DNA of 64,000 bases from positions 22,968 to 86,967 of the IMG/VR virus record IMGVR_UViG_3300024346_000030, one strand, 5' to 3'. Below, one piece after another: positions 9,590 to 58,608 of this stretch; positions within the stretch are counted from its first letter, which is position 1; each line of letters begins with the position of its first letter. The DNA is from a virus (Duplodnaviria; Caudoviricetes). The translations under genes were made by a program, and so were the position numbers. The notes under the pieces are model-generated. The model made no database searches. It saw nothing but the letters and a program-made list of their open reading frames with translations, and had not been told where the DNA came from.

Positions 9590-9590
9590 A

Positions 9591-10691: not shown

Positions 10692-10692
10692 C

Positions 10693-27989: not shown

Positions 27990-29015
27990 ATGAAACAAAT
28001 CCTAGAAAACATTGGTTACAATCTTGTTGATTGCGGTAACCATTGGAGAACCAGGGCTGTGTATAGGGATGGAGACAACCCTACGGCGCTGCAGATATAT
28101 AAAAACACAGGGGTATGGATAGACTTTATTCAAGGCAATAAGTCAAAACCTTTTGAAGCTCTTATACAGCTTACATTAAAAGACGATAAAGATAAATTAA
28201 AAACAATCCTAAAGTCGATAGACTCAAACTCTGAAGATTTTACTGAATACAAACAAAAAGCATTAATACAAATGGAGAAAACTTACGACAATTCTGTTTT
28301 AGATAAATTGTTCCCTAACTACAATTTTTATAAATGCAAAAAAATATCAGAGTCAACACAGTCTGCTTTCAAGGTTGGTCTAGCTGGCTCTGGTCAGATG
28401 TATCGCAGAATGGTTTTCCCTGTTTATAATGAACACTCTCAAATTATAGGTTTCTCAGGTAGAAGAGTTGATGACAATGATTTTGCAAAATGGAAACACT
28501 TAGGTAAAAAAAATAACTGGATATACCCAGCCTATATACCAAACGAAGAGAGTGTAGACTCTATAATAACAAAGTCTAAAGAAGTGTATCTTGTAGAAAG
28601 TATTGGTGATGCAATGTCCCTTTATGAAGAAGGCATAAAGAATGTGTTAGTTATTTTTGGTCTTTCTGTCAGTGCTTCAATTATAACTTATTTATCTAGT
28701 AAAAGTTTAGAAAGAATAATTATAGCTGGTAACAATGATTTCAATTCGAAAGAGAATAGGGGTTTGATGGCTTCGATTAAAAACTTTTTAAAACTCTCAG
28801 CTTATTTTGATCTTGATTCTATTCAAATTAAAAACCCACCGAAAGGTTTTAATGATCTTGGAGAGGCACATGAGTCTGGTAAATCTTTAAAAGACTGGTC
28901 TAATGATAAAGTTGATATAAAAAAGCAAAGGTCTTTTATATCCAGCTTCGTTTCGGAGAACTACCAGAAGTTTTCTAAAAGCCATATTAAAAAAGCAAAA
29001 AAAATAAATGAGTGA
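27990..29015 (+). CDS. dnaG: DnaG-like primase (Toprim) with degenerate zinc-binding domain
   Basis: RMVFPVYNEHSQIIGFSGR, KWKH, VYLVESIGDAMSL, IIAGNND. Start at ATG 27990 or TTG 27972. Confidence 0.85.
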   Translation: MKQILENIGYNLVDCGNHWRTRAVYRDGDNPTALQIYKNTGVWIDFIQGNKSKPFEALIQLTLKDDKDKLKTILKSIDSNSEDFTEYKQKALIQMEKTYDNSVLDKLFPNYNFYKCKKISESTQSAFKVGLAGSGQMYRRMVFPVYNEHSQIIGFSGRRVDDNDFAKWKHLGKKNNWIYPAYIPNEESVDSIITKSKEVYLVESIGDAMSLYEEGIKNVLVIFGLSVSASIITYLSSKSLERIIIAGNNDFNSKENRGLMASIKNFLKLSAYFDLDSIQIKNPPKGFNDLGEAHESGKSLKDWSNDKVDIKKQRSFISSFVSENYQKFSKSHIKKAKKINE

Positions 29016-30033
29016 ACCAATAACAACATTATCAGCTAGCAGAATCAAGACAGCAGAGAGTTGTTCCTGGTTGTATTGGGCTAAGTATAAATTAAAACTT
29101 CCAGACAGGAGTAATGATGGGGCTAGGAGGGGTTCTATATGCCACTTAATCTTTGAGGTGCTCGGTGAAAAAAGAAGAAGACATTATTTCGACGAGATCG
29201 TAAGAACGCTTGACGTATTTAGCGTACCTTCTATTAAAAGGTTGATCATGAAACACGCTATCAGAGAAGGCGTAGATGATGAAGATAATGTTCAAATGAT
29301 GAAGGAAATGACCCTCAATGGTTTGATGTATGATTTCTTTGGAAACACTGATCAAGAGCCCACTGAAGAACATTCTGAGAAAGACTTCCATATTGTAGTT
29401 AATGATGGAACTGTTAAATATAAAATAAGAGGTTTTATCGACAAGCTGTTCTTATACAAAGACAAAAAGTTTGCCTTGATTAGAGACTTTAAAACCAGTA
29501 AGGAAACATTTAAAGGTAAAGATGCAGAGGACAACATGCAAGACCTTATGTATAGCCTCGCTGTAAAGCATTTATTCCCAGAGTACGAGACAAAACAAAG
29601 TGAATTCTTGTTCTTGAAGTTTGACTTGATTCCAGATGTCAAAAAAAGCGGTATTGTTAGGATGGAGCCTCTTGATGAGCATGATCTTCACGGTTTTGAA
29701 CACCACTTAACAGAGATACAAAAATATCTAGACAACTTCAATGAGGAGTCTGCCACTAAAAACATGGCTGCATATAAAGGTTTTCCTAGTGATGGATCAT
29801 TTAGCTGTAAACTTCTTTGTGGTTTTGCCAAGGAAAAAGGACAACTTAAGAAAGATGGTTCGCCAATGTGGCATTGCGGAATGAAGTTTGACTTCTTTTA
29901 TTATGACATTAAGGACGCGGAAGGTAACTTTTACAAGTCTTGTTTTGATGATGAGTTTTCTGAGGATCTAGTTCCAGAAGGAGGTACTTATGAAATGAAA
30001 TATTATGCAGGATGCCCAGCACATTCTTCTTGA
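29008..30033 (+). CDS. Cas4/RecB-like PD-(D/E)XK exonuclease
   Basis: LSASRI..A..C, RGFIDKL, IRDFKTS and several C-terminal Cys (possible Fe-S cluster). Confidence 0.8.
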   Translation: MSEPITTLSASRIKTAESCSWLYWAKYKLKLPDRSNDGARRGSICHLIFEVLGEKRRRHYFDEIVRTLDVFSVPSIKRLIMKHAIREGVDDEDNVQMMKEMTLNGLMYDFFGNTDQEPTEEHSEKDFHIVVNDGTVKYKIRGFIDKLFLYKDKKFALIRDFKTSKETFKGKDAEDNMQDLMYSLAVKHLFPEYETKQSEFLFLKFDLIPDVKKSGIVRMEPLDEHDLHGFEHHLTEIQKYLDNFNEESATKNMAAYKGFPSDGSFSCKLLCGFAKEKGQLKKDGSPMWHCGMKFDFFYYDIKDAEGNFYKSCFDDEFSEDLVPEGGTYEMKYYAGCPAHSS

Positions 30034-42745: not shown

Positions 42746-45700
42746 TTACAATTCTATTATATCCATTTCAGAGATAAGGGAGGGGTCGCCCTGATTTGAT
42801 TGATTTTGCAAATCAATTACCTGTATGTTTTCTTCTCCTATTTCTGAATCGTAATATCTAGTATTAAAGTTTTGATTATCAAAAGGTAAGCCCTTTGCTT
42901 CTACTCTGCATTTATATTTACCTATAGAGTATAGGTCATCTAATACACACGAAGTGCTTAACAATCCTAACTTGCTAATTCTCTGTCCGTTAGGCAAAAC
43001 AAACTCAACATTGTAACTCGTAGCTCCCACTGAACTGGTCCAACTAGCTGATATGAAGTTATCGTAAACACCTTGAGAATAACCTTGTGATAGAGTTACG
43101 GTTGGTTCTTCTATCTTAATGTAAGAAACTGCCGAAACATTAAACTGATCCTGATAATAACCAAAATTGTCAAAAGGATCTTCAACCGAAGATGGTTTTT
43201 CTATTTGGTCGTATCTATCACTAAGAAACTTAACTGCCTCTACTGTATATTTATTATCGGATTCTTCCCTTGTACCAACTATTTTGTATATTTGATCTTC
43301 TCTGTTTTTGTTTTTAAATCTGTAAGATGTGCCTAAAGGGACAAAAGACAATAAAGACAAAGTGGGATCATTTTGATCTAAGTAAACAAGATCTCCAAAT
43401 TCTTTAGCATTAGTACCAGTTACTTTAAAGTCGTAAACTTGAGTTGCGCTAGTTATATCTATATCAGCTTCGCTGATACCTTGAGTGTAGTCTAAGTCTC
43501 CTTCTACTGAATCCCTGAACAAGCCTTGTCCATTGAAAACAAAAGATGCTCTTCTGTCTGCTTGGGCTGTGTCATAAGTCATTATGTCTGACTCAGATTC
43601 TGTACCAGGGTTTGGATTTGTTATTTCTGAAAAACTAAAAGTGTCCCCCTGAACTATATATTTATCATAAATATTATTATCTGAAAGTGGTGAACCAGTA
43701 GAGAAAACCCAACCAGTTGCGCCTGTACTAAACCAAACAAAACTTTCATTGTTTGGCCCCCCTTTATATAATCCATATTCATTTTGGGGTTCAGAACCAA
43801 CATTTAAATCAGAGAAACCTTCTGTATATCTTTCGAAGCTATAATCTCCAACAAAATTGGAATTAAACGTGTTGTTTGAAGTTGATAAAATTTCAAAACC
43901 ATACGTTCTAGATCTAACAAGGCTTGTTAAATCAGAAACATCCTGTATGTTTTGCTTGGCCACAGGCACATACATAGTTATATAGTCCTCATAATCTCCA
44001 CTAACAAAAGGTTGACTTGTTCTTATTGTGTAATTTTCAGTATCTATTTCTAATATTCTTCCGAAATTGGAATCTAAAGATTTCAAATCATCCTCTATTA
44101 TTATCAAATCTCCAGGAGAAACTAATAGAGACTCCAAGCCTACCACAAACCCAACAGCTTGATCTTCTTTTGTTCCTTGAAAAAGAACATGCCTAGCAAG
44201 TCTGTTTGCTTGTGATTTTGATGTTATACCAAATCCATTTACCGTTTTCTTAAATGTGCCTCTTCTAGAGACATCTTCCTCATCCTCTACATATTCGACT
44301 TTCGTTTTGAATCCGTCGTACTTGTCTATGTAAGGAACTTCTATGGCATTGAATTTTTCATCTCTTTTTAAATTAGAGTAACTAAAAACGCCTTCTTCGA
44401 CCATTGAGTTTGTGAAAACAGCAATAGGGTCTTTGAATCTGTCGTCTGAGAAACTAATCTCTGAATTTTGATAATAAACAAAACCCCTAAATATAGAAGC
44501 GATGGTGTTTATGGAATCAAATATTCTTGTCCCTTGACTGAACATTATATTACAAGCAAACCTTGGTTCTAATCCTCCACGACCATCATCTACGCCCTCA
44601 TAAACTCCATCTTTATTTACAGAGTCGCAGAACCTACCTATTTTATACAAATCCCATTTATTGACCTGTTCTTCTCTTAGGTGTTCCCCTAATCCATAAC
44701 GAGTAGAGACTATCATATCATACAAAATCCAAGCAGGGTTGTCAGTCCATTCGTACTTGAATGTTCCATCCCAATCTCCCTTGTATATTCTGAGCTTTTC
44801 TTGGGAAAGATTGTCTATCTCGTTTTTCTGGTCCCAATATCTTAAGTCTTTGTCATTCTTGTCTGTCGGAAAATAATTAGAAGGTACCCTTATCATTTTC
44901 AACTTGCAATCATAAGTTCTTGTTGGTGGAGATTCAAAAGACCTTGAGTCTATTTTCATTCCAGCTATAGCAGAATATGGATATTCCATCCTTAATGGCA
45001 TTATCTCTGTCACCTTTAGTAGTGTCATTTTTTTCTGAACTAGTATACTTGATGTCTCTGTCGACAATCTAGTTACCCTTATAAATCTTTTGGTTTTTAC
45101 GTCTTCCGATCTACTTGTGTCATTTGGATCGGCTGGGGTATGAGCTGGAGGTAACGGAAATGGGTCAAACAAATCAAAATCTGAACCTTGACAGGAAGAG
45201 TCAGCTTTTTCATCTCGGTTTATTTCTCTAAGAAAATCAAAATCATCTATAGCCGACCTGTTGTCTGGGTTCCCTATATCTAATAGCGCTGGAGATTCTA
45301 CAATAGAACTTATTTTATAAGCTATATCTAATGTAGTTTCAAAATCGCCTAAAGAATTTACATAACCAACCTCAACCTTGAAGTTCATTGTTCCAGGTAT
45401 CCTTGCTCCTGCTCTGAACGTCGGGTCTTCTGGGTCTCCGATATCTTGCTGTACAGTATCCGAAAGTGCGTCTACTCTAAGTGTAATAAAAACTTCGTCT
45501 ACATTGTTGTTGTAGATGATATGAGTTAGCGGTTGAGCACTCTCTTCAAAATTTGGAGCTTTATCGTTCCAGTCGTCAAAACTTTCTCTCCCTTCTCTAG
45601 TCGACCTATCGTCATTAGAGCCTTCTCCTCTTCCTAAAATAGCACTTGTTGATAAGTTAAATTGACCTTGCGGAGAAAGCATTTTAGCACCTTGCCTGAT

Positions 45701-47548
45701 CTTTTCAACTTGACCGCTTTGTCTGAAAGGCCCCCAAAGTTGGCCGTCATATGTAAAATCAACGAATAGCTTTTTAAAATAATCAAGAGAATCCTGACTT
45801 TGTAAACCGTTACGAAACTCACAAAGAATATTGCTGTAATTAAATTTACTGGGCAGTTGTACAAAATTATCATCAGGGTCAATTTCTGCTTTTTCTACAC
45901 TGTATACTTTAAAACCCTTATTGGTTACAAAAAACTGAATATCCTTTTTTGATATCTTGCCTATAAATAAATCTGAATAGGGGCTTGTGATTCCAGGTAA
46001 AGATGTTCTTAGTTGTCTAAATAAGCCAAGTTCAACTAGATAAAACCCTTTTACATTTCCGTTCCAACTTCCATCGTTAGCCATTTCAGGGACAAGTAAA
46101 TTTATTGTCCTGCTACTTATTTCTCCCAATGTTGAATTTCTTACAGAGTCAAGGATAAGTCTCGCATCTGTATTAACTGCTGTTCCTGCTTGGTTTTGGA
46201 ATAAATCTGTTTGTGCCTGATTTAAATAAGCTTCAAGCTGACCAGATACTTTTATACATAAATACGGTCCAACCCTGTTGTTTGATTCTGCATCTGTAAA
46301 CCAATCCGTAAAGCTGGGGTCATAATTACCCCTTACTATGTCTTTTATAGCTGCAGTATCAAGAGTCTGAGTGGTCAGATCAAAACCATAATCTTTTAAT
46401 CTTTCAGTCAAATATGTGTATTCGGCTGACTGTGATGGTGTTATGTTAAGAATTTCATCAGCACCCCTACTAAGTGAACCCTGACTATCAAACATTTCAG
46501 ATATTGTGTTGACAGACATGCCAAAATTAACTTGATATTTAGAATTGGCATTGACTTCTATGTCAATATCATATATCGGTCTACCAGTTTGTGGGTCGGC
46601 TCCGTTCAATGTGTCTTGGTAAACGCCCAAATCCTCCGTTCTTGTATAAAACGCGTTAACATCTCTATCTAAAGACGAGTCTACTATATATCCTCCGCCT
46701 TGACCATCTACAACTATACCAGGAAGATTGTCTGCAGGATACCCTGTATAAGTATTAAAAGGATCAGTTGGGTTTCCATATGGTGCATCTTCAAATTCTT
46801 GTGTTGATGCGTTAAAAACTCGGTCTTTATACCAACCAGTTCCATTATACTTGTCACTAGTTGCAACAAGTTTCCAGAACCCAGGTCTTAAATCAGTTTC
46901 TAATTCATAATTAAGCCTTACTTGGTGAGCGTCCACGAAGCTTTCAGCTGACGTACCCGCATAATTGTTCTCCCATACCAAATTAGAGCCATCTCGAACC
47001 AGCTCTATAATTGATCCATTGTAGGATATACCAAAAACCGCCACAGCTGTTATCGGAGAGGCCAATAACCTAGGAGATCCGATAACATAATCATCTACCT
47101 GATAATAACTAGGTGCGGCTGATGAAGACTGGCTTGCGACGACACCATCGTTTGTGGTTACAACTAAAGCCGCAACAGAATCAAATACTTCTTTTACACC
47201 GCTTACTAGTGCTGGTTGTTGACTTTCGTTTATTTGTCCGTTTTCCCCACCCGCGACTAACTCGTCGAAAGGAACTAAGAAATTCTCTTGGCTTTCTTCT
47301 ACTGGTATACCGTCTAAATAAACGCCTTGCAAAAGATATTCAGGAGGTAATGGATAACCATTTTGGTTTACTAAACCCTTGATTGGCCCATCGCAAACCA
47401 AGTCTACGACTTCTAAATAACTAAATGAAGACAAAACCGAATAAGCCCCTAGCTCTGGTGGCACTAAAAATGCAGGTTTTGGTTTTGGTGGGTCTCCTCC
47501 TCCGAAACCAGCTCCCCTAAACGTATTTTTGAATTCGAAGTGCTTCAT
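42746..47548 (-). CDS. Tail tip protein J (host specificity/central fibre hub)
   Basis: GAGFGGG start, DLVCDGPIKGL, PYSAIAGMKIDSRSF..PTRTY, WDGTFK..WTDNPAWILYD...RYGLG and RFACN, plus a C-terminal FN3-like domain. Confidence 0.92.
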   Translation of the reverse strand: MKHFEFKNTFRGAGFGGGDPPKPKPAFLVPPELGAYSVLSSFSYLEVVDLVCDGPIKGLVNQNGYPLPPEYLLQGVYLDGIPVEESQENFLVPFDELVAGGENGQINESQQPALVSGVKEVFDSVAALVVTTNDGVVASQSSSAAPSYYQVDDYVIGSPRLLASPITAVAVFGISYNGSIIELVRDGSNLVWENNYAGTSAESFVDAHQVRLNYELETDLRPGFWKLVATSDKYNGTGWYKDRVFNASTQEFEDAPYGNPTDPFNTYTGYPADNLPGIVVDGQGGGYIVDSSLDRDVNAFYTRTEDLGVYQDTLNGADPQTGRPIYDIDIEVNANSKYQVNFGMSVNTISEMFDSQGSLSRGADEILNITPSQSAEYTYLTERLKDYGFDLTTQTLDTAAIKDIVRGNYDPSFTDWFTDAESNNRVGPYLCIKVSGQLEAYLNQAQTDLFQNQAGTAVNTDARLILDSVRNSTLGEISSRTINLLVPEMANDGSWNGNVKGFYLVELGLFRQLRTSLPGITSPYSDLFIGKISKKDIQFFVTNKGFKVYSVEKAEIDPDDNFVQLPSKFNYSNILCEFRNGLQSQDSLDYFKKLFVDFTYDGQLWGPFRQSGQVEKIRQGAKMLSPQGQFNLSTSAILGRGEGSNDDRSTREGRESFDDWNDKAPNFEESAQPLTHIIYNNNVDEVFITLRVDALSDTVQQDIGDPEDPTFRAGARIPGTMNFKVEVGYVNSLGDFETTLDIAYKISSIVESPALLDIGNPDNRSAIDDFDFLREINRDEKADSSCQGSDFDLFDPFPLPPAHTPADPNDTSRSEDVKTKRFIRVTRLSTETSSILVQKKMTLLKVTEIMPLRMEYPYSAIAGMKIDSRSFESPPTRTYDCKLKMIRVPSNYFPTDKNDKDLRYWDQKNEIDNLSQEKLRIYKGDWDGTFKYEWTDNPAWILYDMIVSTRYGLGEHLREEQVNKWDLYKIGRFCDSVNKDGVYEGVDDGRGGLEPRFACNIMFSQGTRIFDSINTIASIFRGFVYYQNSEISFSDDRFKDPIAVFTNSMVEEGVFSYSNLKRDEKFNAIEVPYIDKYDGFKTKVEYVEDEEDVSRRGTFKKTVNGFGITSKSQANRLARHVLFQGTKEDQAVGFVVGLESLLVSPGDLIIIEDDLKSLDSNFGRILEIDTENYTIRTSQPFVSGDYEDYITMYVPVAKQNIQDVSDLTSLVRSRTYGFEILSTSNNTFNSNFVGDYSFERYTEGFSDLNVGSEPQNEYGLYKGGPNNESFVWFSTGATGWVFSTGSPLSDNNIYDKYIVQGDTFSFSEITNPNPGTESESDIMTYDTAQADRRASFVFNGQGLFRDSVEGDLDYTQGISEADIDITSATQVYDFKVTGTNAKEFGDLVYLDQNDPTLSLLSFVPLGTSYRFKNKNREDQIYKIVGTREESDNKYTVEAVKFLSDRYDQIEKPSSVEDPFDNFGYYQDQFNVSAVSYIKIEEPTVTLSQGYSQGVYDNFISASWTSSVGATSYNVEFVLPNGQRISKLGLLSTSCVLDDLYSIGKYKCRVEAKGLPFDNQNFNTRYYDSEIGEENIQVIDLQNQSNQGDPSLISEMDIIEL

Positions 47549-48144
47549 AGTATAGTTCCTTTTGAGTAAGAAAAATCTGGAGAATCTGAATAAGAACTGC
47601 CAGCTATTATATCTTTCGGCACTTGGTTTCTTGGAAAGCTTTTAACGCAAGCCTGTATAACTTGAGTACCAACCCTCAATCGACCATAACCCACTGGAAC
47701 GGGTATACCCTGAGCAGCTACGTTTGCTTTATTTGCGAATATAAAAGATTGTTCAAAACCTCGAGCCGTCACACTAATATCTGGTGGTTCTGGAGGTTTG
47801 GGTGCCAACAGCAAAGCTATAGCTAAAGCTACAACAGCTATAACAACAGCAACAGCAACAGCAATAAGTATAGGAGCCAAAGGTCCAGATCCAGTTATCA
47901 AAGGAACTATATCTATAACTTTGTTATGTCCAATCAGCTCAAGCTGTGATTTTTCAGATATTCTCTTACCGTCTACAACGATGGCGTAATTGAAACCTTT
48001 TTTATGTAGGTCTATAATTCTTTTTTTAAAATTTGATCTGTTTGCTTCTATAACCGCGAACGCCTCTCTGGGTTTAGCTATCCTTGCTTTGAAGGAAGAG
48101 CCAAACTCATGCTTTAAAATTCCATGTAATCTAATTGTAGTCAT
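47545..48144 (-). CDS. Tail assembly protein I (lambda gpI-like)
   Basis: IRLHGILKHEFG, IDIVPLITGSG, hydrophobic stretch, and N.AAQGIPVPVGYGRLRVG. Confidence 0.9.
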   Translation of the reverse strand: MTTIRLHGILKHEFGSSFKARIAKPREAFAVIEANRSNFKKRIIDLHKKGFNYAIVVDGKRISEKSQLELIGHNKVIDIVPLITGSGPLAPILIAVAVAVVIAVVALAIALLLAPKPPEPPDISVTARGFEQSFIFANKANVAAQGIPVPVGYGRLRVGTQVIQACVKSFPRNQVPKDIIAGSSYSDSPDFSYSKGTIL

Positions 48145-48539
48145 ACGTACTCCTTAAACCTGTTTATCATTAATACATCTACTTCGTGTTTTTTTGGCAT
48201 ATAAATATTACTTTTTTTATTATTTAATGAATATATAAAAAATGGCAAGCAGCAATTTTCAGACATAACAACATCAAATTCAGATGGTTTTTCGTCTCCA
48301 GATATGTGGCTATGAAACAAAAAAAGAAAATCATTATCTTCCTGAAACAACAAATAATCAACAGGGCTTATAGCAAAATGATTAACTTTGTCATCAGCTA
48401 TGTTTTCGCACTGTCTAACAACAACTGAGTCTCCATTATAACCTACAAAACCACAGATTTCAGTGTGTTTGTTTTTCTCGCAAACCTCTACGATATAATC
48501 TATACAGTCCTTTTCGTTTTTTATTTTCTTGTCTATCAT
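48141..48539 (-). CDS. Tail assembly protein K-like JAB/MPN domain protein (no NlpC/P60 domain)
   Basis: EICGFV, FAISP.DY, FHSH...PSEFD motif; lies between gpL and gpI. Confidence 0.85.
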   Translation of the reverse strand: MIDKKIKNEKDCIDYIVEVCEKNKHTEICGFVGYNGDSVVVRQCENIADDKVNHFAISPVDYLLFQEDNDFLFLFHSHISGDEKPSEFDVVMSENCCLPFFIYSLNNKKSNIYMPKKHEVDVLMINRFKEYV

Positions 48540-48540
48540 C

Positions 48541-51500
48541 TTAAAGTTTAGTTCTGAACTGAAATGGGTCCGTACCAGGGAATCCTCCGAATGGAAGGCT
48601 ATAGCTATCTTGTGTTTTGCTTATTAATTTATTTTTTAGGCTTGTAGAATCTTTCAAGCACATATCGTAAAACATATCAGTATGCCACATTTTGTAGTTG
48701 TTTTCTTCGGGTCCAGCTATAAACGAGTTACATACAAACTTTTCTGGAGGGTTGGATATAATTGTTGACTCTATATCCCACCCGCACAGATAGAATCCAA
48801 CAGGAGGATTTATATTTGGGTATAAATCACCTATGTCGCCTGGGCAGTTACTAGAAAGGGCTGCTTGTGCTTGTTGATTAGAAATTTCTGCCGTTATCTG
48901 ACCGTCTGCACTTTCATAAGTTCCATAAACGCTCACGGGAAGCCCATCAGACTTTTCTAAGGATACGATCAGTTCCTGGGGTGATTCCCAAGGCTCAACA
49001 CCATTATCTGTGCAGTAATCTGCTGGTTGTTGTACAACTCCGTCGACATCCAACTGTATATTCAATGTGTAAATACCTGGCCCAGGTCCAAATTGAGGTG
49101 GCTGGAGGAAGCAAAAGTTATTTATGTTTGCTGGAATCTCGTCTTCAAGTGCTACATTGCCTGATGGGTCGGTACTAAAAACTTTAAAGCATTCAGTGGT
49201 ACCCAAAATGTCTATATCAACATAACCCTCAGAACAAAAACCCTCAGAAAACTGAGCGGAGTATCCAACTTTGTAAGTCCCACCGCCTTGAACGTCTACA
49301 TTGTATTCACAACCTGGATTCGTTAGGCAATCATCGGTAGAGCAATAGCGCGGTACAGATTCTGAACCATATTTTAATTCTGGCGAATAACATATTCCAG
49401 CGTCCCAGTAGCCAACTAAGTCTGTCAACAAGTCTGGGTAGTCGTTAGTTATTATAGATATAGGCTTTGTGTTTATTGAGCCTTTTAGATCAAAAAATAA
49501 AACTTCTTTCTTTTCTGTTGCTGTTAGTTTTCTTCTCCATATAGCCGTATTACTAAACACAGTTTTTGGTTCTTCCCATCCATAAGCTTGCGGTATTACA
49601 TTGTACAAGTGAGAACTAGCTGGAAAACGTTTGGTTTGGACTCCAGAATAAGGGTTCTCTAAACCTCCAGAAAAAGGAATAAGAGCTCCTCTTTTACCGT
49701 AATCTTTTGTTGAGAAAACACCCCCTTTAACACCACTACCATCAACAAAAAAAGAATTGTTTGTTGGATCAAAAACAAAAGCGCCCCTCCTGTCTGGCTG
49801 ATTTGTGTCATACTCCATTATGTGATTATCACCAGGAGAAAGCAAATTGTTTGGGTCTCCTAAATTAGCTAAATCGTGCAGTCCTGTGTAATTTACGATA
49901 TATTTATCGTTTACATTATCATCAAGTCCGTAATCACCTATAGAAAAAACCCAACCAGTAATGTCTTTGTTGAAATATATGTAAGAATTCCCGCCATTCC
50001 CACCTGAATATACAGCGTATTCATTCTGCTTGGCCAACAAGCCATCACCAACGCCGTCTATATACGGTCTTACATAATTTCCGTTTGAATCTCTGTCTGT
50101 TTCGTAACCTCTTGTGGTAATTGTAGAACTATACAAGCCTTCAAAATTACTATAAAAATCGGCCCAAGGGTCTGAAGGCTGAGTCGCAGGAGATTCTATT
50201 TCTAAGTTAGTGTACTTATAAGCCCTATAATTGTAACTCGGGCTTGTCTCCAATCCATCTGATTGGTCGTAGAATCTTGGTCCAGGAAGAATCCCAAGGC
50301 CCAGTTCATGGTAATCTATTACCAACTGCTGCCCAAGTGTATTTAAAGAGGTTGAGAAAACTGGAGTCTCATAACCATTTGATTGGAAGTTTGGCAGGTA
50401 AGCTTTCAAATCGCCACCATCATTTTCTATAAATAATGGTATTTCTGATTCTGTTTCAAGATTGTAAATAGACGTTATTACGTCTTTTCTGTTTATGTAG
50501 TTATTGCTTACATCTTTGCTTGTGTAATGCATAACTATACTTAATTTCGAATCATTATCAAACCTCTCGAAAGATAATCTCAAACCGTCGTATAAGTTCC
50601 AAGTGGTTTGTAATATACCGTTTTTATAATCATTAGCACCCTGCTCCTGAATCTTTAAAACCAGCATTAATGTAAAGTCTTGACTTCCATTAATTGCCGA
50701 TGCTAAATCATCAGCAGAATCACTATCAAAGGAATAGTTTCTTAAAACATCCCTGGGCGGGATTACAAATAAGTCTCCAGGTCCAGGAGGTAATGATCCT
50801 GGATCAATATCTTCAGAGCCAAGAGGTCTTCTCAGCAAGAGTCCCGCCTGCCTCCTTGGTTGATCTGTGCCGCCCTCTTGTAAAGCGGTGTTAGCTTGTC
50901 CTGTAAATTGATAAAGCCTGTGGTCTATCCTTTTTGATGGAAGAAATAAATCCTCCGTATAAGGATCGTAAAATCTAAGCTTGCAAGAGCTTACTTTTTT
51001 ATTGCAACCGTCCCTTTCCCAAAACTTTGGATTTTTCTCTGGATCGAAACCGCTTATGTTCTCTCTTGCCACATAATAAGTTAACATTGGCTTTGGGTCC
51101 TCTATTCCATTTGGATCAGCGATAGTTACCCTATTGTTCTCTTTAAATGCTATCTCTCCTTTTAAGTAGGCTCTTATTGGGTCATACAGATCTTCATAAT
51201 TTCCGTACTCAAAATCCAACTCACCACCACCTATGACACCCAATGTATTTTCTTGTGTGTCTACAAAGGGAGTTCCATCCGCTTTTTGTTTTGGGGGGCC
51301 TTGGTAACCACACCCTTCTCCCCTATACTTCCAGTAACAGTACCTAGCGAATATTCTCCTGTTGTTTACTTCAAATTCGTCTAAATCAAGAGGGCTTGTT
51401 AACTCTAATTCTACAAAATTTTTATTTTCTTGAATCTTCTGGGATACAAGGTATTCTTCGTTAAATAATTCTGCAGACGCATCTGCCTCTCCGAAAGGGT

Positions 51501-51867
51501 TTCCTCCATCAAAATTTATATCATCTAAGAATTTTACAAAAACCCTCTTTCTTATTACTTTGGCGTTTTTTAAATCATTATTATTCTGGGCAATATTGGT
51601 AACAAAATAATCATTATTTGATATCCTCATTTTAGGCCTATTCAGCCTACCGTTAGCATTGGTCTCGAAACCTTCCGCTTCTATCCCCATGGGTTGGTAT
51701 GTCAGACCCTGCCAAACCACGCCTCTACCAAAAACAGAACCATCATGTACATCGAAAAAGTAATTTGGTTTTGATATGTAATCAGGATACAATCTATAGA
51801 GGCTCAACAAAGACCCTGGCTGTAAGCTCATTAGCTCTCTTGCTGCTTTATCTCTACCCTCCGCCAT
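48541..51867 (-). CDS. Minor tail protein L (lambda gpL-like) with a ~790-aa insertion
   Basis: YQPMGIEAEGFE...LNRPKMRISN, VIRKRVFVKFLD, LELTSPLD, CYWKYRGEGCGY, GCNKKVSSCKLRF (4 Cys) and terminal PFGGFPGT. Confidence 0.88.
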   Translation of the reverse strand: MAEGRDKAARELMSLQPGSLLSLYRLYPDYISKPNYFFDVHDGSVFGRGVVWQGLTYQPMGIEAEGFETNANGRLNRPKMRISNNDYFVTNIAQNNNDLKNAKVIRKRVFVKFLDDINFDGGNPFGEADASAELFNEEYLVSQKIQENKNFVELELTSPLDLDEFEVNNRRIFARYCYWKYRGEGCGYQGPPKQKADGTPFVDTQENTLGVIGGGELDFEYGNYEDLYDPIRAYLKGEIAFKENNRVTIADPNGIEDPKPMLTYYVARENISGFDPEKNPKFWERDGCNKKVSSCKLRFYDPYTEDLFLPSKRIDHRLYQFTGQANTALQEGGTDQPRRQAGLLLRRPLGSEDIDPGSLPPGPGDLFVIPPRDVLRNYSFDSDSADDLASAINGSQDFTLMLVLKIQEQGANDYKNGILQTTWNLYDGLRLSFERFDNDSKLSIVMHYTSKDVSNNYINRKDVITSIYNLETESEIPLFIENDGGDLKAYLPNFQSNGYETPVFSTSLNTLGQQLVIDYHELGLGILPGPRFYDQSDGLETSPSYNYRAYKYTNLEIESPATQPSDPWADFYSNFEGLYSSTITTRGYETDRDSNGNYVRPYIDGVGDGLLAKQNEYAVYSGGNGGNSYIYFNKDITGWVFSIGDYGLDDNVNDKYIVNYTGLHDLANLGDPNNLLSPGDNHIMEYDTNQPDRRGAFVFDPTNNSFFVDGSGVKGGVFSTKDYGKRGALIPFSGGLENPYSGVQTKRFPASSHLYNVIPQAYGWEEPKTVFSNTAIWRRKLTATEKKEVLFFDLKGSINTKPISIITNDYPDLLTDLVGYWDAGICYSPELKYGSESVPRYCSTDDCLTNPGCEYNVDVQGGGTYKVGYSAQFSEGFCSEGYVDIDILGTTECFKVFSTDPSGNVALEDEIPANINNFCFLQPPQFGPGPGIYTLNIQLDVDGVVQQPADYCTDNGVEPWESPQELIVSLEKSDGLPVSVYGTYESADGQITAEISNQQAQAALSSNCPGDIGDLYPNINPPVGFYLCGWDIESTIISNPPEKFVCNSFIAGPEENNYKMWHTDMFYDMCLKDSTSLKNKLISKTQDSYSLPFGGFPGTDPFQFRTKL
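48893..49307 (-). repeat. Inverted repeat copy 1 (module shared with 56462-56887)
   Basis: Manual alignment: first block 100/110 identical; second block contains perfect runs of 45 bp (49062-49106 vs 56663-56707) and 37 bp. Confidence 0.92.
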
Positions 51868-51875
51868 ACTAAAAA

Positions 51876-51881
51876 ATACAC
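51876..51881 (-). promoter_or_regulatory. GTGTAT motif, 8 nt before the gpL ATG
   Basis: Minus strand reads AGTGTATTTTTTAGTATG. Confidence 0.5.
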
Positions 51882-51926
51882 TATTTATGTATAATATGAT
51901 ATATATATTTTTTTTAAACTTTTTTA

Positions 51927-51954
51927 TTGACTTTGTGCTTTGTTTGTTTATAAT
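51927..51954 (+). promoter_or_regulatory. Sigma70-like promoter TTGACT-N16-TATAAT
   Basis: In the divergent gap upstream of 51975. Confidence 0.6.
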
Positions 51955-51974
51955 AGTCCGAATACAAAATTAAA

Positions 51975-52169
51975 ATGAACGAATATATCTATAGAGTTTT
52001 TAACCATAAAGAAGATTATCAACAGAGTTACAGCCCATCTCTTGATGGTTCTCTCGATTGGGCTATAGACTGCGCCAAAAGAACAAACGGAAAAGTCTAC
52101 TTCTGCGAAATGAAAAACGGCATAACTATAAAAAGAAAACTAGTAGAGCCAGAAAAAGGTAAAAATTAA
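51975..52169 (+). CDS. Hypothetical protein
   Basis: ORF with a promoter directly upstream. Confidence 0.55.
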   Translation: MNEYIYRVFNHKEDYQQSYSPSLDGSLDWAIDCAKRTNGKVYFCEMKNGITIKRKLVEPEKGKN

Positions 52170-52172
52170 GAG

Positions 52173-52706
52173 GTGCCAATTATAAATTCGATAGAGTCTT
52201 ACGAAATTAGCAATTTAGACTACAGCAGTAAAGAATTCCTTCAAGACTTTCTTTCTTATTGTGTCCATTCCATACCAGAGGACGGCATGGAATCCAAATC
52301 TCTATCCGTAAGAATTAAGTTTACAAATATATTCTTACAAAAACTAAAGAAGTGCGATCACTCTTTGTTAATGAAAAATAAACAGGGAGAGAAAATGTGT
52401 TACATTTTTTTAAAAGAAGAAGACAAAGGCGAAGCCTTAATGATAGATTTCATATTCCCCTCTGAGAATATAAAGAACACAACCCATAAAGAAAAATCGA
52501 CATTGTTCACTATATCTGCAATTAAGCTGATGAAGCTTTTCGACGTTAGCACAATAAAAGGCAAAATAACTAGAACAAACAAAATAAAAGGTTACATAAC
52601 CTTTATAAAAAGATACATAAAGTATATAGAGTTGTCTGAAACCAACCAAAACATACAAGCTACGATAACAAAAGACAAAGTTTTACCCTATTATGCAAAA
52701 TTATAA
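52173..52706 (+). CDS. Hypothetical protein
   Basis: GTG start, tightly packed with neighbours. Confidence 0.55.
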   Translation: MPIINSIESYEISNLDYSSKEFLQDFLSYCVHSIPEDGMESKSLSVRIKFTNIFLQKLKKCDHSLLMKNKQGEKMCYIFLKEEDKGEALMIDFIFPSENIKNTTHKEKSTLFTISAIKLMKLFDVSTIKGKITRTNKIKGYITFIKRYIKYIELSETNQNIQATITKDKVLPYYAKL

Positions 52707-52944
52707 CTTTAAAATTGTAGCGGCAAACTCATCCACAAAGCGGTTGTTGAATGAGGAGTTCTTTTTGGGAGGCTTTGACTTTAATGGCTCAGTATTAACA
52801 CTGGAAGTAAATATTAAAGGTGAAATCTTTTTGATACAAGTTAAATCAATTATGTTTATAAAAGGTGTGTTTGCTATTAATTGTTTTTTAAGCTCTGAGA
52901 GCGGAGATTGTTCGGGTAAGGTTGTTTTAGAGCAATTGATATAA
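52693..52944 (+). CDS. Hypothetical protein
   Basis: Overlaps the 3' end of the upstream gene. Confidence 0.5.
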   Translation: MQNYNFKIVAANSSTKRLLNEEFFLGGFDFNGSVLTLEVNIKGEIFLIQVKSIMFIKGVFAINCFLSSESGDCSGKVVLEQLI

Positions 52945-52978
52945 GTTTTACTTTTTTTTATAGGTGTTTTAATATTCT

Positions 52979-52984
52979 GTGTAT
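52979..52984 (+). promoter_or_regulatory. GTGTAT motif, 8 nt before the ATG at 52993
   Basis: Seen directly in the intergenic gap. Confidence 0.5.
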
Positions 52985-52992
52985 CTATTTAC

Positions 52993-53244
52993 ATGGCAAC
53001 ATCTACCCAATCAAGTCTTTTAAAAACCCTTGGAGCTTATGGCGGCAAAAGGGTCGTCGGCAACCAAACTCTTTCTGGTAAATTTATGGCTATTCACGCC
53101 CTCGATGACACTACTATAGAAGCGGGGACAGTAGGTAACATTGAAGGTTTTGTAGGGGCAACTATAGTCTTAGGAGATGTTATAGTAGGCTCTTGGACTA
53201 CCTTGCATATTTCTGGAGAAGCTATAGTTTACTATGCAGATTAA
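52993..53244 (+). CDS. Small beta-rich virion-type protein
   Basis: GKFMAIHALDDTTI...GDVIVGSWTTLHISGEAIVY resembles small structural proteins common in aquatic phages (recalled, unverified). Confidence 0.55.
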   Translation: MATSTQSSLLKTLGAYGGKRVVGNQTLSGKFMAIHALDDTTIEAGTVGNIEGFVGATIVLGDVIVGSWTTLHISGEAIVYYAD

Positions 53245-53246
53245 TA

Positions 53247-53582
53247 ATGAGACTACTAAATATATTTGGTAACTCCGTTAGGAAAAGGTTTATTTCATCT
53301 GCAAAAAGGTGTTGTGGCTTTTCATGGTCTGATGATAAATTATGGCAAGAAGAATGCAGGTGGAAAGAACCCTTTTGCTGTTCTAGCTTGTGGTACAACT
53401 CTAACACATGGATCAACACTTGTATTTGGCCAGTAGGCACCCAAATAACTGGCACTTGTGCCTGGAATGAAGAAGATCTGTGGGTCAGTAGCGAGTCATT
53501 TATTATTTCGGATAATTGGAATGAAACAGATTCTTGGAATAGTAATGATTTTTGGGATTCCTGTCCTAATGACACACCTTAG
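53247..53582 (+). CDS. Trp/Cys-rich hexad-repeat protein
   Basis: 11 Trp, mostly 6 residues apart. Start moved to ATG 53247, just after the upstream stop. Confidence 0.6.
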   Translation: MRLLNIFGNSVRKRFISSAKRCCGFSWSDDKLWQEECRWKEPFCCSSLWYNSNTWINTCIWPVGTQITGTCAWNEEDLWVSSESFIISDNWNETDSWNSNDFWDSCPNDTP

Positions 53583-53643
53583 GGCGTATTGGTTTTTAGT
53601 GCAATATCAAATACAAAAAGTATTTGTTAAACAAGTTATTTTC

Positions 53644-53650
53644 GTGTAAT
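53644..53650 (+). promoter_or_regulatory. GTGTAAT motif upstream of the fibre cluster
   Basis: 31 nt before the ATG at 53681. Confidence 0.5.
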
Positions 53651-53680
53651 TAATTCAAAGCATCAAAATAAATTTTAAAT

Positions 53681-54103
53681 ATGTCATTACAACCCTTTAA
53701 CCCAGTACCAAACCAGACAACACACTCTGACGCGACAAGCCTAATCAATAGTAATTTTGTTGAAACAGAGCAAAGGCTTGCTTCTATGGAGGCCAGACAA
53801 AGCCAAAACACAGTAACATCTGTTAATGGAGTAGCTACATTTGATTCTTCAAGTATCTTAGCGAGCAAAATAACAATAACCGAAAACACCGAGATTGTTA
53901 TTTCAAACGCCACAGCTGGCGACTCAGGTATAATTATTATCAGAGAGGCAAGCCCAGGAGGTTTTGGCATTACAAGCAATCATGTAGTTTTAGGTGGAAG
54001 TCTTTCTTTGTTTGACTTTATCACCCCAGTAACTGGTGTTGGAACAATCAGCTGGTATTATGACGGCTCCGAATATCTTCTTTATGTTTCAGAAACCACC
54101 TAA
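53681..54103 (+). CDS. Short fibre/decoration protein
   Basis: N-terminal anchor (TTHSDATSLINSNFVETEQRL) shared with two fibres; C-terminal ITENTEIVISNATAGDSG..YYDGSEY beta domain. Confidence 0.65.
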   Translation: MSLQPFNPVPNQTTHSDATSLINSNFVETEQRLASMEARQSQNTVTSVNGVATFDSSSILASKITITENTEIVISNATAGDSGIIIIREASPGGFGITSNHVVLGGSLSLFDFITPVTGVGTISWYYDGSEYLLYVSETT

Positions 54104-54174
54104 CAACATAAAAAATCTTTCTCTTTACATAATAATAACCTAATCAATAAATTTAATTTAAAACCGACAGAACA

Positions 54175-57100
54175 ATGGCGCAAAACCCTATAGAAATAAC
54201 AGAAGGGTTAACAACCCACGAGAATGTTTTGGACTCAATGAATCTTAATTTTTTAGATTCAGAGTTAAGAATTTCAGCACTCGAAGACGCTGGCCCTGGT
54301 ACAGTAGGACCTGAAGGTCCTGAAGGTCCTGAAGGTCCAGCAGGTCCAGCAGGTGCTAATGGACCCCAGGGTATTCAGGGTATACAGGGTGTAGCTGGTA
54401 CTGATGGTATTGACGGAGCTACTGGCTCTACTGGTCCTACTGGCCCTAGGGGGATTCAAGGAATCCAAGGAGAACAGGGTTCTGCGGGTTCTGCAGGAAC
54501 TGGCGTAACATTTCTTGGAGATGTTCCTACAGTTGGTGATTTGCCTTTAACGGCAACACAAGGAGATGCATACATAGTTCAAGCTGACGATAGTTTTCAC
54601 ATTTATGATGGGGTCAATTTTATAAGCGGTGGTTCTATCCAAGGACCCCAAGGAATTCAGGGTCCCCAAGGAGTTCAAGGCGTTCAAGGTGAAGCTGGCG
54701 TTAACGGCGTTGACGGTTCTGAAGGTGCTACTGGTCCTGAAGGTCCACAAGGCATTCAGGGAATACAGGGTGTTGAAGGTCCAGCGGGTGATACTGGTCC
54801 CGAAGGCCCACAAGGCATTCAAGGTATTCAAGGAGAACAGGGCATCACTGGCCCTGCGGGTGATACTGGTGCGGTTGGTGCAACTGGTCCCGCTGGAGAA
54901 CAAGGTGTAACTGGACCCGCTGGCGCTGATGGTATTAATGGCAATGATGGTGCCGCTGGTAGTGACGGCGTTGACGGCAATGATGGTGCTGATGGAGCTA
55001 CTGGCCCACAGGGTCCAATTGGTCCTACTGGAGCCGACGGTGCTCAAGGCCCTACTGGATTAACAGGTTCTCAAGGACCACAAGGTCCAGAAGGCCCTAT
55101 AGGTCCAGCAGGTGTTGACGGTACTGACGGTGCTGATGGAGCTACTGGCCCCACTGGTGCTGACGGTGCTGACGGAGCCGTAGGTCCAACAGGATCTACT
55201 GGTCCTATCGGCCCTCAAGGCCAACAAGGAATAACTGGCCCACAAGGAATACAGGGAGTACAAGGGGAAGAGGGTCCTGCGGGATCTGCGGGAACTGGCG
55301 TAACATTTCTTGGAGATGTTCCTACAGTTGGTGACCTGCCTTTAAGTGCGACACAAGGAGATGCTTACATAGTTCAGGCCGACGATAGTTTTCACATTTA
55401 TGACGGTTCCGCTTTTGTAAGCGGAGGTTCAATTCAAGGCCCTCAAGGAATTCAGGGTGTTGATGGAATTCAAGGCATTCAAGGTATTCAAGGGGCAGAC
55501 GGTATTCAAGGAGATACTGGGGCTGCAGGCCCTCAAGGACCACAAGGAATCGCTGGTTCTGACGGAGCCACAGGTCCTCAAGGGCCTCAAGGTGTTCAAG
55601 GAGATGCTGGAGCCACGGGTCCTCAAGGCCCAGCAGGAGATAATGGTTCTGATGCGGTTGTTGATAATGCATCTTATGGAGAATCCTGGTCTAGCGATAC
55701 TACTCAAGCAGCTACCAGACAAGCCTTGTATAATAAATTAGAGGGTATAGTTAATGGTGGAGGAACAGACATAGTAGAATCATCCGTAGCCACCAACCCA
55801 GCTCTTATAGCCAAAGAAGACACACCTTATAACGACACTGTTTCTGGTCTTGTTAGAGGAAGTCAAGCTATTGATTTGCAACTTAGACGCCAAGCTAACA
55901 CAGATATAGCTGGCGGTAACATGTCGGTAATTGCTGGTGGTGATAGCAATGAAATTTCTAGCGCTGGAGGAGGAGCTAACGGGCAGTATGCAACTATTAT
56001 AGGAGGAGGATTTAATAAGGTCCTTGTCGGTCAATACAGTAGTGTGTTAGGAGGATATTTAAATCAGATTAACCCAGACAATGGCAATGCAAATTATTCT
56101 GTAGTGTGTGGAACACGGGCAGAAGCAAAGCACTCTAGGTCGTTTGTTTTTAATGATAATGAGGGTACACCTTTTACTTCTTTGCAGAGCAACACATTTA
56201 ACGTTCACGCAACTAATGGACTAAGGCTTATTACTGACGGTTCACAAACAGCTAATCAGGTTTTAACTTGTGATGCTGATGGTCACGGAACTTGGCAAGA
56301 TTTAAGTGGTCAAATAACGCTAGAAGATGCTTCTGCTTTAGTTTATGTTTCTAAGGATGGTGACGATGCTAATGATGGTCTTTCGATTGACAAACCAAAA
56401 CTAACTATAGGAAGCGCTATTACAGCTGCTGAAACTTTATCTACATCTACAATCGGTTCTCAATACAATGTAAACGTTCAAGGCGGTGGGACTTACGAAG
56501 TTGGATACCCCGCTCAGGTTTCTGAGGGTTTTTGTTCTGAAAATTATGTTGATATAGGTGTTTTGGGTACCCAAAGAAGCTTTGTAGCGTCAGATCCCAT
56601 CCCTGAACAGCCTTTATCATACAGCGACGAAGATCTAAACAAAACCTCCAACAATGCCTTCGTCCAGCCACCTCAATTTGGACCTGGGCCAGGTATTTAC
56701 ACATTGAGTATAGAGTTGGATGTCGACGGAGTTGCACAAGAACCAGCAGATTACTGCGCAGATAATGGTTTCGGGCCAGTTGAGCCTTGGGAATCACCCC
56801 AGCAATTGGTCGTAGTCTTAGAAAAGTCTGATGGGCTTCCTTTGGAATTTTATGGAACTTATGAAAGTGCAGACGGTCAGATAACAGCAACAGTCACAAA
56901 TACGCTTTCTACTGTAAGTTCTCCTGTTAAAATTGAGGTTCTTGATGGTGGTATTTATCAAGAAAATATAGTTTTAACTGACCTTATAAAGGTACACGCA
57001 CCTAGCGCAACTCTCTCTGGAAACCTTGGTATGATTGAAAACTGTGGAGCTGAGTTTTATAGGCATGATTTAGGTGTTGATGTTGGCAATTTCGCTTTAG

Positions 57101-58608
57101 TCTCCGTATCTGGTACGGGAGAAAAATTTTACAAATGTAGTATTATGGATACTACTGCTGACGGAACAGAGAGTGCCAATACAGCCATCTTTGTTTCGGG
57201 TAGTAGTAATTTCAATAGGCTTTGTGTTGATGTTGGATTAATAATTGTAGGCTTTTCATCTAAGGGCATAAATGCTGTATCGACAGGACTATATACAGAA
57301 CTGTTTGGAAGTATTGATCATATATCGCTTTACAAAAACAACTCAACAGCAATAAGTGTAAGTTCTCAATTTTCAAATACCAATAGCGTTTCGCTTAATA
57401 TAAATACCATAGACCAAGAAACTGGCCTTGGTTCTATCGTTAATTCGAAAGCTCTGCAAATTGACGGAGGCAATGTTACCTTAAGCTTAAACGAAATAGA
57501 TGCTGACATTGCATATAATATAGGTACATCAGGAAGATTGTATCTTGAATGTCTTAAAATAGCTGGATCAAAAACAGGAACCCCACTACTAGAGATTTCT
57601 GAAGATACATATGGAGTTGCATCAGCATTAGCATACAATGCAGGTAACACTGATTCTATAGAAATCGGTGCATTAGACAGCACTACTGAGACAGGTCCAA
57701 ATTCCATAACCATACAAGGTAGTAGAGGACTTGCTACGCAAGTAGCTTCAGGAACTAATTCTATAGCAATTGGAACGAACACAAAAGCAGAGGGGGATCA
57801 AGCAGTTGCTATTGGTGTCGGGAGCCAAGCTACAGATAATAACGGAACAGCTGTAGGCTCAAACACCCAAGCTTCTTCACCGCATTCTACAGCAGTAGGT
57901 ACCTTTTCGAGAGCACAAGGAGGTTATGGATCTTGTGCGTTTGGTCACTCAACTTTATCTGATGGTGTGGGATCTTTAGCTTATGGATATAACTGCCAAG
58001 CTAAACAAAATGGCTCTGCGGTATTTGGTAGAAACGTAATTAATAATACAGCAAATACTATAGAAATTGGACATTGGGCGGATACTGGCAACACTGGCAG
58101 AACAGGTGCGGTTCGGATGGACTCACAAAGAAATGTATCATTTAGTATTAAGGATACAGCTGTAGTTATGATAGATGGTGGAAGCCCGAATGGTTCTGAA
58201 GCAGTAAACACGCTCGGCCGTCAAATGATTGCCTTTAGGCGTAATGGCGATGATATTTACGTTGATTCAAATGATGCTGTGGGTAATATTACAACAACGC
58301 AACTCGGTGGAGATGGATCTTCAGTTAATAATGTCGCTACTGTAACAACAATTACCCATTTACAGCCTGTTGGCAACACACATACAATATATAATGATAC
58401 AACCGCTGGTGCAGATATCACATCTGAACTAATGTCGGCATCAGATCACGTTGGAACATCTGTACATAAGAAAATAGGAGATAGCCACAACGTTGTTATA
58501 ACAGCACCAGTTGGCAGCACAATCGATGGCCAACAAACATTCACATTATCCTTTAAAAACGAAAGCGTAAGCATTTTTTCTGATGGATCAAACTTTTACA
58601 TAATCTAA
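54175..58608 (+). CDS. Collagen-like tail fibre/adhesin with beta-helix-type and YadA-head-like domains
   Basis: Long G-X-Y runs; two [15 protein letters not shown] spacer modules; [20 protein letters not shown] motif; SIAIG/AVAIG/TAVG head repeats at about 57755-58030. Confidence 0.85.
54496..55403 (+). repeat. Direct repeat of a 113-bp spacer module (54496-54608 and 55291-55403)
   Basis: About 90% identical DNA encoding [37 protein letters not shown]. Confidence 0.9.
55545..55596 (+). repeat. 52-bp perfect direct repeat shared with 60022-60073 in the next fibre gene
   Basis: aggaatcgctggttctgacggagccacaggtcctcaagggcctcaaggtgtt is identical at both sites. Confidence 0.9.
56462..56887 (+). 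repeat. Inverted repeat copy 2 (module shared with gpL)
   Basis: Encodes [15 protein letters not shown]...[14 protein letters not shown]...[13 protein letters not shown], nearly identical to the gpL segment. Confidence 0.92.

Follow-up and report, generated by a model that had tools for sequence, protein, structure and literature searches.

Probable recent, patchy gene conversion between an enlarged gpL and a collagen-like fibre of an uncultured siphovirus-like phage

A protein module of ~145 residues occurs twice in a 64,000-nucleotide (nt) stretch of DNA (positions 22,968 to 86,967 of IMG/VR record IMGVR_UViG_3300024346_000030; hereafter the window, meaning this whole stretch) from an uncultured siphovirus-like phage with a G+C content of ~36%. 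One copy is in a much enlarged tail-tip protein gpL and the other in a collagen-like fibre, and because the two genes are divergently transcribed the copies form an inverted repeat at 48887-49314 and 56455-56891, 7.1 kilobases (kb) apart. Each copy consists of three blocks, which are much alike in the two genes, and a short core between the first and second blocks, which is not. The two copies are mosaic, their blocks vary together by genome, and the exchange of the blocks is recent relative to the nearest relative. We consider that this pattern is probably the result of recent, patchy gene conversion between the gpL and fibre copies, brought about by homologous recombination with no dedicated switch; that the exchange is intragenomic and that general recombination carries it out are what we infer from the pattern. 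The biology is sound and fairly ordinary, namely recurrent conversion between old paralogous domains of two tail proteins.

Mosaic structure, co-variation and timing

A repeat search of the window resulted in three collinear inverted arm pairs (Table 1); no further inverted pair brackets the region, with only short pairs at chance level found besides. In a MAFFT alignment of the two copies, 104/116, 102/108 and 99/113 nt are identical in blocks 1, 2 and 3, respectively (88-94%), and 40/90 nt (44%) in the core of 90 nt that separates blocks 1 and 2. The repeat as a whole is 81% identical over 439 nt by blastn and 79% identical over 436 aligned columns, and the encoded copies, which are both in frame, match at 59% over 172 amino acids (aa) by BLASTP (E 4e-56). 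No other self-match in the window scores as high as this pair (402 bits), and the module is present there only twice. Its arms enclose the 5' parts and promoters of the two divergent genes, and a crossover between them would yield in-frame chimeras.

Much of this had been put forward in a sequence-only reading of the same DNA, in which a model worked from the letters and open reading frames (ORFs) without database searches. That reading described an inverted repeat of ~430 base pairs (bp) with the same module in equivalent frames of gpL and the fibre, and repeat search, alignment and BLASTP all bear this out. It placed the perfect runs, 45 and 37 bp long, correctly, its block of 100 identities in 110 positions was about right (102/108 in our alignment), and its naming of the two genes as gpL and a collagen fibre agrees with their domain matches (Phage_tail_L for the one, Collagen and YadA_head for the other). 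The geometry that it drew, with repeats flanking the 5' parts of divergent genes and in-frame chimeras as the product of a crossover, was also right. The gene-specific core and the surplus of aa changes are additions to that reading.

An antisense ORF of 147 aa with a TTG start (56447-56890, minus strand) is coextensive with the fibre copy. We rejected it as probable chance, because the equivalent frame in gpL is broken (longest stretch 98 aa) and because its wobble position falls on position 2 of the sense codons, where variation is not highest.

Relatives of the module were sought in a word-indexed collection of 5.8 billion clustered proteins and, exhaustively with phmmer, among the 1.8 billion representatives of that collection. 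Besides the window proteins, clear relatives of the module were present in only two protein clusters of the 5.8-billion-protein collection. Three lineages could be compared: W, the window itself; E, with gpL P0005 and fibre P0006 (ENA); and J, with gpL P0014 and fibre P0015 (JGI). The gpL and fibre of E and J are intact, and in both lineages the two genes carry the module; the duplication is therefore older than the split between W, E and J. The J gpL is encoded at 2158-5490 of contig L003. From gpJ up to and including the last ORF before the fibre, this contig and the window are collinear, with the same five small ORFs in the same order and orientation. The exact sequence of the window gpL (P0001) occurs on 4 contigs. 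A metagenome scan matched two short contigs, L001 and L002. The first of these (UPTG01016291.1, 3157 nt) matches the window without a difference and stops at gpL aa 881, within block 1; here the repeat probably broke the assembly, and the end of the contig is hence uninformative about orientation. Isolate phages gave no match to the module by tblastn and no DNA similar to the window by megablast, and a scan of IMG/VR with the module returned nothing, while the fibre body returned distant fibres only.

Identity between orthologues is ~80-95% along both genes and falls sharply, to 38-65%, exactly in the module. When aa identity was compared block by block, grouping by gene was found for the core and for the sequence on either side of the module. 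For example, the core is 69% identical between the gpL proteins of W and E and 62% identical between their fibres, versus 17% between the gpL and fibre of W. In blocks 1, 2 and 3, the two W copies share 77, 75 and 79% of their aa, respectively, which is more than in any pair of orthologues that includes W (36-69%). For the DNA, a three-sequence test (W gpL, W fibre and J gpL) counted 92 sites at which the W gpL equals the W fibre and 50 sites at which it equals the J gpL, falling into 30 runs (permutation p<1e-5), with the J-type sites concentrated in the core. A quartet test gave 11 sites that partition by genome and 3 that partition by gene within the blocks, versus 0 by genome and 21 by gene outside them (blocks versus outside, Fisher p 9e-7). 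Block 2 of both W copies is gpL-type (60-69% to the E and J gpL versus 41-45% to the E fibre), and block 3 of the W copies leans by small margins toward the fibre type (62-69% versus 54-59%); these affinities hint at exchange in both directions. Co-evolution of the two copies across strains, which the sequence-only reading had named as a check on its proposal, is thus positive by block identities, three-sequence test and quartet test, in the three blocks only.

In order to date the exchange, synonymous (dS) and non-synonymous (dN) divergence was calculated by the Nei-Gojobori method. Between the gpL and fibre copies of W, dS is 0.083 and dN 0.113 over blocks 1-3, and dS differs from block to block (0.079, 0.0 and 0.174), with dN at 0.073 in block 2 alone. 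The W and J gpL genes differ by a dS of 0.265 and a dN of 0.056 over aa 1-840, by 0.34-0.70 and 0.27-0.51, respectively, in the three blocks, and by 0.12 and 0.32 in the core. Since the dS between copies (0.083) lies below the W/J gpL background (0.265), exchange of the blocks postdates the W/J split, and the core values indicate vertical descent with fast aa change. At least two events are likely, because a heteroduplex cannot cross 90 nt at 44% identity and because the dS values of the blocks differ. The sequence-only reading had held synonymous sites to be largely preserved and the exchange to be recent, both of which agree with these values (0.083 in the blocks; 0.08 against 0.27 for the gpL of the nearest relative). 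Taken together, these results show paralogues closer than orthologues in the tract only, clustered discordance, and synonymous homogenisation younger than the divergence of the lineages, which are the marks of concerted evolution.

Gene conversion and the rival explanations

Gene conversion would account for the pattern as follows. An old domain would have been built into two virion proteins, as part of the gpL insertion described below and of the fibre body, and its three scaffold blocks (39, 37 and 39 codons) would have been homogenised between the copies by non-reciprocal recombination during replication, probably in at least two conversion events and perhaps in both directions. The 29-codon core would be too diverged to pair (44% nt identity), hence it would stay gene-specific and evolve by aa change. 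The likely catalyst is the UvsX-like recombinase of the phage, perhaps together with its exonuclease (for end processing) and single-strand DNA-binding protein, or else host RecA, and any inversion would be a rare and probably defective by-product. Simple domain copying, which the sequence-only reading gave as its alternative to a switch, is borne out as to copying or conversion and not as to simplicity, since the duplication is old and the patchwise homogenisation recent.

Several observations weigh against gene conversion, or leave it incomplete. The residual differences between the blocks are mostly non-synonymous (27.8 versus 6.2 synonymous, dN/dS ~1.4), whereas ~4.7 non-synonymous changes are expected in the blocks at the background ratio of the gene, and 20 of the 34 nt differences fall at codon position 1 with only 6 at position 3 (binomial p 0.002). 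This excess of aa change is not predicted by plain conversion combined with purifying selection or neutral drift and is incompletely explained; we take it that, besides conversion, the blocks underwent diversifying selection or gene-specific residues were retained. Furthermore, the copies may have been only ~40-70% identical before conversion, as they are in E and J, which is low for RecA-type exchange; therefore either short identical patches were enough or homogenisation has been continuous in the W lineage. The comparison also involves only two outside lineages, E and J, which are close together and have near-identical fibres; P0005 and P0006 are probably on one contig, as judged from a longest contig of 14,362 nt for both; and the DNA available from relatives is that of gpL (L003), with the fibre side resting on protein comparisons.

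Four other explanations were weighed against these same data. Both genes may have taken the same blocks independently from one or more other phages during co-infection. The tail genes of phages are well known for their mosaicism, and the W copies differ so strongly in the blocks from their E and J orthologues that foreign input is conceivable. However, this would need at least two parallel imports into two genes, each ending at the same core boundary, and no third carrier of the module was found in the searched collections; the gpL-type block 2 that the W copies share is in line with an intragenomic donor. We therefore regard independent import as unlikely. We hold it to be quite unlikely that the blocks are kept alike as homology arms for swapping cores between the genes or between co-infecting relatives, in the manner of pilE/pilS. 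Arms of 116 and ~220 nt do flank a hypervariable core of 90 nt with dN>dS between orthologues, and the excess of aa change in the module points in the same direction. Against this, the core is gene-specific in every genome seen, with a dS of 0.12 between the gpL cores of W and J and no swap observed; E and J lack arms that are alike (41-72% aa identity), such that the architecture is not conserved; and silent cassettes are absent. A broader form of the idea, in which the blocks are maintained as recombination arms that reshuffle both virion proteins in populations, through core swaps and occasional inversion chimeras, appears similarly improbable to us. If true, such arm maintenance would constitute a recombinase-independent, homology-driven device for receptor diversification in a virulent-type marine phage.

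The sequence-only reading had put first a possible receptor switch like that of the Mu G segment. In such a switch, programmed or regular inversion (Mu G or P1 C-like), driven by the recombinase of the phage in place of an invertase, would flip 49.3-56.5 kb between the arms and give two chimeric receptor-binding proteins. The geometry fits such a switch, as in-frame arms with perfect runs of 45 and 37 bp enclose the 5' halves and promoters of both genes, and the phage has a gene for a UvsX-like recombinase. The end of contig L001 falls within the repeat, as it would at a branch in an assembly graph, although any repeat gives the same result. On the other side, no resolvase/invertase, tyrosine recombinase or integrase family was detected in any ORF scanned across the 64-kb window, and the arms are coding repeats of ~430 bp without short (~26-34 bp) crossover sites at their borders. 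No chimeric gpL-fibre protein is present among the 5.8 billion clustered proteins, whether in near or in shorter length classes, and only the collinear form is seen (the 4 contigs with the exact P0001 sequence, E, J and L003, all consensus assemblies); the search for the other orientation in related contigs, suggested in that reading, thus yielded intact, collinear relatives throughout. The core is also strictly gene-specific, whereas crossovers in block 1 would move the core, blocks 2-3 and the 3' end between the genes. Additionally, inversion would move the conserved C-terminal 'PLxFGxFP' motif of gpL from its core onto the collagen stalk, with an effect on function that we presume to be harmful. 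The sequence-only reading had itself cautioned that splitting gpL may be deleterious, a caution which proved well placed, as the module belongs to an insertion within the fold of gpL and inversion would separate the gpL core from its C-terminal motif; this position of the module therefore makes a useful switch unlikely. In view of all this we consider a regular switch very improbable, and the case cautions that long in-frame inverted repeats in divergent genes are not necessarily switches. An account with no recombination at all, by recent duplication and fast divergence of the core or by convergent selection on the blocks, has nothing in its favour beyond the similarity itself and is barely credible, as both genes of the relatives contain the module, each with its gene-specific core, placing the duplication before the W/E/J split, and as the identity is seen at synonymous sites too (dS 0.083 over the blocks, with 0 for block 2), which convergence does not achieve.

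A diversity-generating retroelement was also considered and rejected; the annotated ORFs include no reverse transcriptase, and the mismatches between the copies are not adenine-specific (A>G 8, G>A 7, C>G 3, G>C 3, T>G 2, G>T 2, and others).

The two proteins, the module and the genomic setting

The window gpL matches Phage_tail_L at aa 43-205 (E 1e-41; 142.8 bits versus a cut-off of 25) and is ~5x the usual gpL size. It was aligned with the canonical gpL proteins of an IMG/VR phage (L004), Acinetobacter phage Silvergun and a Ralstonia phage, in which the end of the protein reads 'CK.R(F/Q)', then 9 to 11 residues, then 'PL.FG.FPA'. In the window protein the corresponding motifs are 'CKLRF' at aa 295-299 and 'LPFGGFPG' at aa 1091-1098; they are ~790 aa apart, and aa ~300-1088, including the module, are therefore an insertion inside the gpL fold, with the gpL core made up of aa 1-~300 and the last ~20 aa. 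The cysteine pairs C177/C186 and C288/C295 are conserved, as is the C-terminal 'FGGFP' motif, and a second insertion of ~80 aa lies between the two cysteine pairs. None of the 1185 matching isolate phage records aligns past gpL aa ~227. In addition to the module, gpL aa 614-700 (49768-50028, minus strand) resemble gpJ aa 1255-1339 (43532-43786, minus strand), with 43% identity over 90 aa (E 3e-15). It follows that the gpL insertion was put together from domains which other tail-tip proteins have too.

The fibre has Pfam matches to Collagen (E 1e-48) and YadA_head (E 2e-13) and consists of an N-terminal anchor, collagen stalks in which a knob is repeated (two copies), a body without collagen that contains the module, and YadA-head repeats. 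The surroundings of the module resemble pectate-lyase-like proteins, and the module seems to be inserted into a beta-helix, at its N-terminal cap. The E and J fibres have TLSSTST before the module and TVTL after it, and neither is a repeat of the other. Elsewhere in the fibre, a direct repeat of 252 nt (84% identical; 54439-54690 and 55234-55485, plus strand) duplicates a non-collagen knob between collagen stretches, and a similar knob is present in the next fibre, P0003. Furthermore, a YadA-head stretch of ~230 aa (fibre aa ~1150-1385; 57622-58329, plus strand) is missing from the otherwise collinear E fibre P0006.

The module has no match in Pfam, among PDB sequences or in the ESM atlas, and its AlphaFold model, all-beta with a predicted local distance difference test score (pLDDT) of 39, is unusable. 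Weak library matches to multi-repeat CHB_HEX_C_1 proteins (E 3e-6 to 7e-4) cover ~40 residues, and hhalign gives a probability of 9% for module against CHB_HEX_C_1. The module is an orphan domain, both old and fast-evolving. Its exposed positions in two tail proteins, its fast aa evolution and its variable core suggest that it binds a ligand on the host surface, with the 29-codon core plausibly the part which contacts that ligand.

The genes of interest are listed in Table 1. gpL belongs to a lambda-type tail-tip operon together with the gpK-like, gpI-like and gpJ-like genes (42746-51867, minus strand), whose assignments rest jointly on matches to Prok-JAB, phrog_30, phrog_32, phrog_31 and Phage-tail_3. 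The five small ORFs between gpL and the fibre match no PHROG or Pfam family, and no recombinase gene is present between the arms. More collagen fibres, including P0003, lie 3' of the fibre that carries the module. The tail genes are split, with the tape measure (2590 aa) and the next tail proteins at 82-13110 on the plus strand and the gpL-K-I-J group ~35 kb away on the minus strand; nucleotide-metabolism, glycan-synthesis and replication genes stand between the two groups. Lambda-type tail modules do not usually have this layout. In the first group, an ORF for a tail protein of 822 aa (10642-13110, plus strand) contains 3-4 tandem copies of ~290 nt (70-74% identical) at 10753-12461.

Table 1. 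Features of the window discussed in the text, with positions in the window. The two positions given for arm pairs and perfect runs refer to the gpL and fibre copies, respectively.
Feature	Position	Strand	Remarks
Single-strand DNA-binding protein	15184-15564	-	Pfam SSB, E 9e-18
UvsX/RecA-like recombinase	24734-25852	+	phrog_97, E 7e-34
Exonuclease	29008-30033	+	phrog_69 and phrog_1218
gpJ-like central fibre (P0004)	42746-47548	-	tail-tip operon
gpI-like assembly protein	47545-48144	-	tail-tip operon
gpK-like JAB protein	48141-48539	-	downstream of gpL in tail-tip operon
gpL (P0001), 1108 aa	48541-51867	-	Pfam Phage_tail_L, phrog_18
Module copy in gpL	48883-49314	-	gpL aa 852-995
gpL copy, block 1	49198-49314	-	
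gpL copy, core	49111-49197	-	
gpL copy, block 2	49000-49110	-	
gpL copy, block 3	48883-48999	-	
Segment between arms, 7.1 kb	49315-56454		gpL 5' part, five small ORFs, fibre 5' part
Five small ORFs	52173-54103	+	within the segment; divergent from gpL, upstream of fibre
Collagen-like fibre (P0002), 1477 aa	54175-58608	+	Collagen, YadA_head, many PHROG tail-fibre families
Module copy in fibre	56455-56895	+	fibre aa 761-907
Fibre copy, block 1	56455-56571	+	
Fibre copy, core	56572-56658	+	
Fibre copy, block 2	56659-56769	+	
Fibre copy, 3-codon (9-nt) insertion	56770-56778	+	between blocks 2 and 3; sole indel
Fibre copy, block 3	56779-56895	+	
Inverted arm pair	48889-48999 / 56779-56889		111 nt, 89%
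Inverted arm pair	48992-49111 / 56658-56777		120 nt, 93%
Inverted arm pair	49198-49314 / 56455-56571		117 nt, 90%
Perfect run, 45 nt	49062-49106 / 56663-56707		
Perfect run, 37 nt	48893-48929 / 56849-56885		

Comparison with known systems

Compared with the lambda gpL family (PF05100), the window gpL shares the N-terminal core, the two cysteine pairs and the C-terminal 'FGGFP' motif, and differs in being fivefold longer through its insertions of ~790 and ~80 aa. An orphan, fast-evolving domain and an unprecedented fivefold enlargement of gpL are likely host-contact elements in this uncultured marine phage group.

The Mu G and P1 C segments are inverted by a serine invertase (Gin or Cin) that acts on ~34-bp sites with an enhancer, and they join a constant N-terminal exon to alternative C-terminal exons. 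The window resembles these systems in that inverted repeats bracket parts of a tail-fibre gene and that a flip would alter a receptor-binding protein in its distal part. It differs from them in all defining features tested; no invertase was found, the arms are coding sequences of 430 bp, the two genes are unrelated and one orientation is seen. In mosaic receptor-binding genes such as T-even gp37/gp38 and the host-specificity gene VR2 of Streptococcus thermophilus phage, a hypervariable segment that determines specificity lies between conserved motifs or collagen-like repeats, and these conserved stretches are where recombination occurs. The module likewise has conserved stretches around a hypervariable segment, whereas in those phages exchange is between phages at the same locus and here it involves two genes of one genome.

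Concerted evolution is recognised by paralogues that are alike within a genome, by mosaic tracts bounded by heterology and by homogenised synonymous sites; the gpL and fibre blocks show the same within-genome likeness, heterology-bounded tracts and synonymous homogenisation. To our knowledge, conversion between two different, inverted structural genes inside a virulent-type phage genome has rarely been documented. Domain sharing among tail proteins is usually taken for ancient shuffling between phages, and in the present case timing, tracts and co-variation are all measurable. They point to a recent and probably recurrent exchange within one genome between different structural genes, in which a short variable core is kept distinct, and so offer a concrete case of how phages may spread changes of scaffold over several host-recognition proteins while the specificities stay separate.

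Our literature search found no description of phage tail genes in terms of concerted evolution, and the only related proposal found was one of domain transfer in Bacillus phage 0305phi8-36. For gp142 and gp209 of that phage, intragenomic transfer of a domain was proposed from copies that are 41% identical, the event being ancient (Hardies et al., 2007; PMC2147016). It is the closest described case that we found, alike in that a domain common to two virion proteins is inserted in a vertically conserved structural gene and is attributed to recombination within the genome. Unlike the case of 0305phi8-36, here an old duplication has been recently re-homogenised in patches (~90% nt identity, dS 0.08), co-variation by genome is demonstrable, and the variable core is protected.

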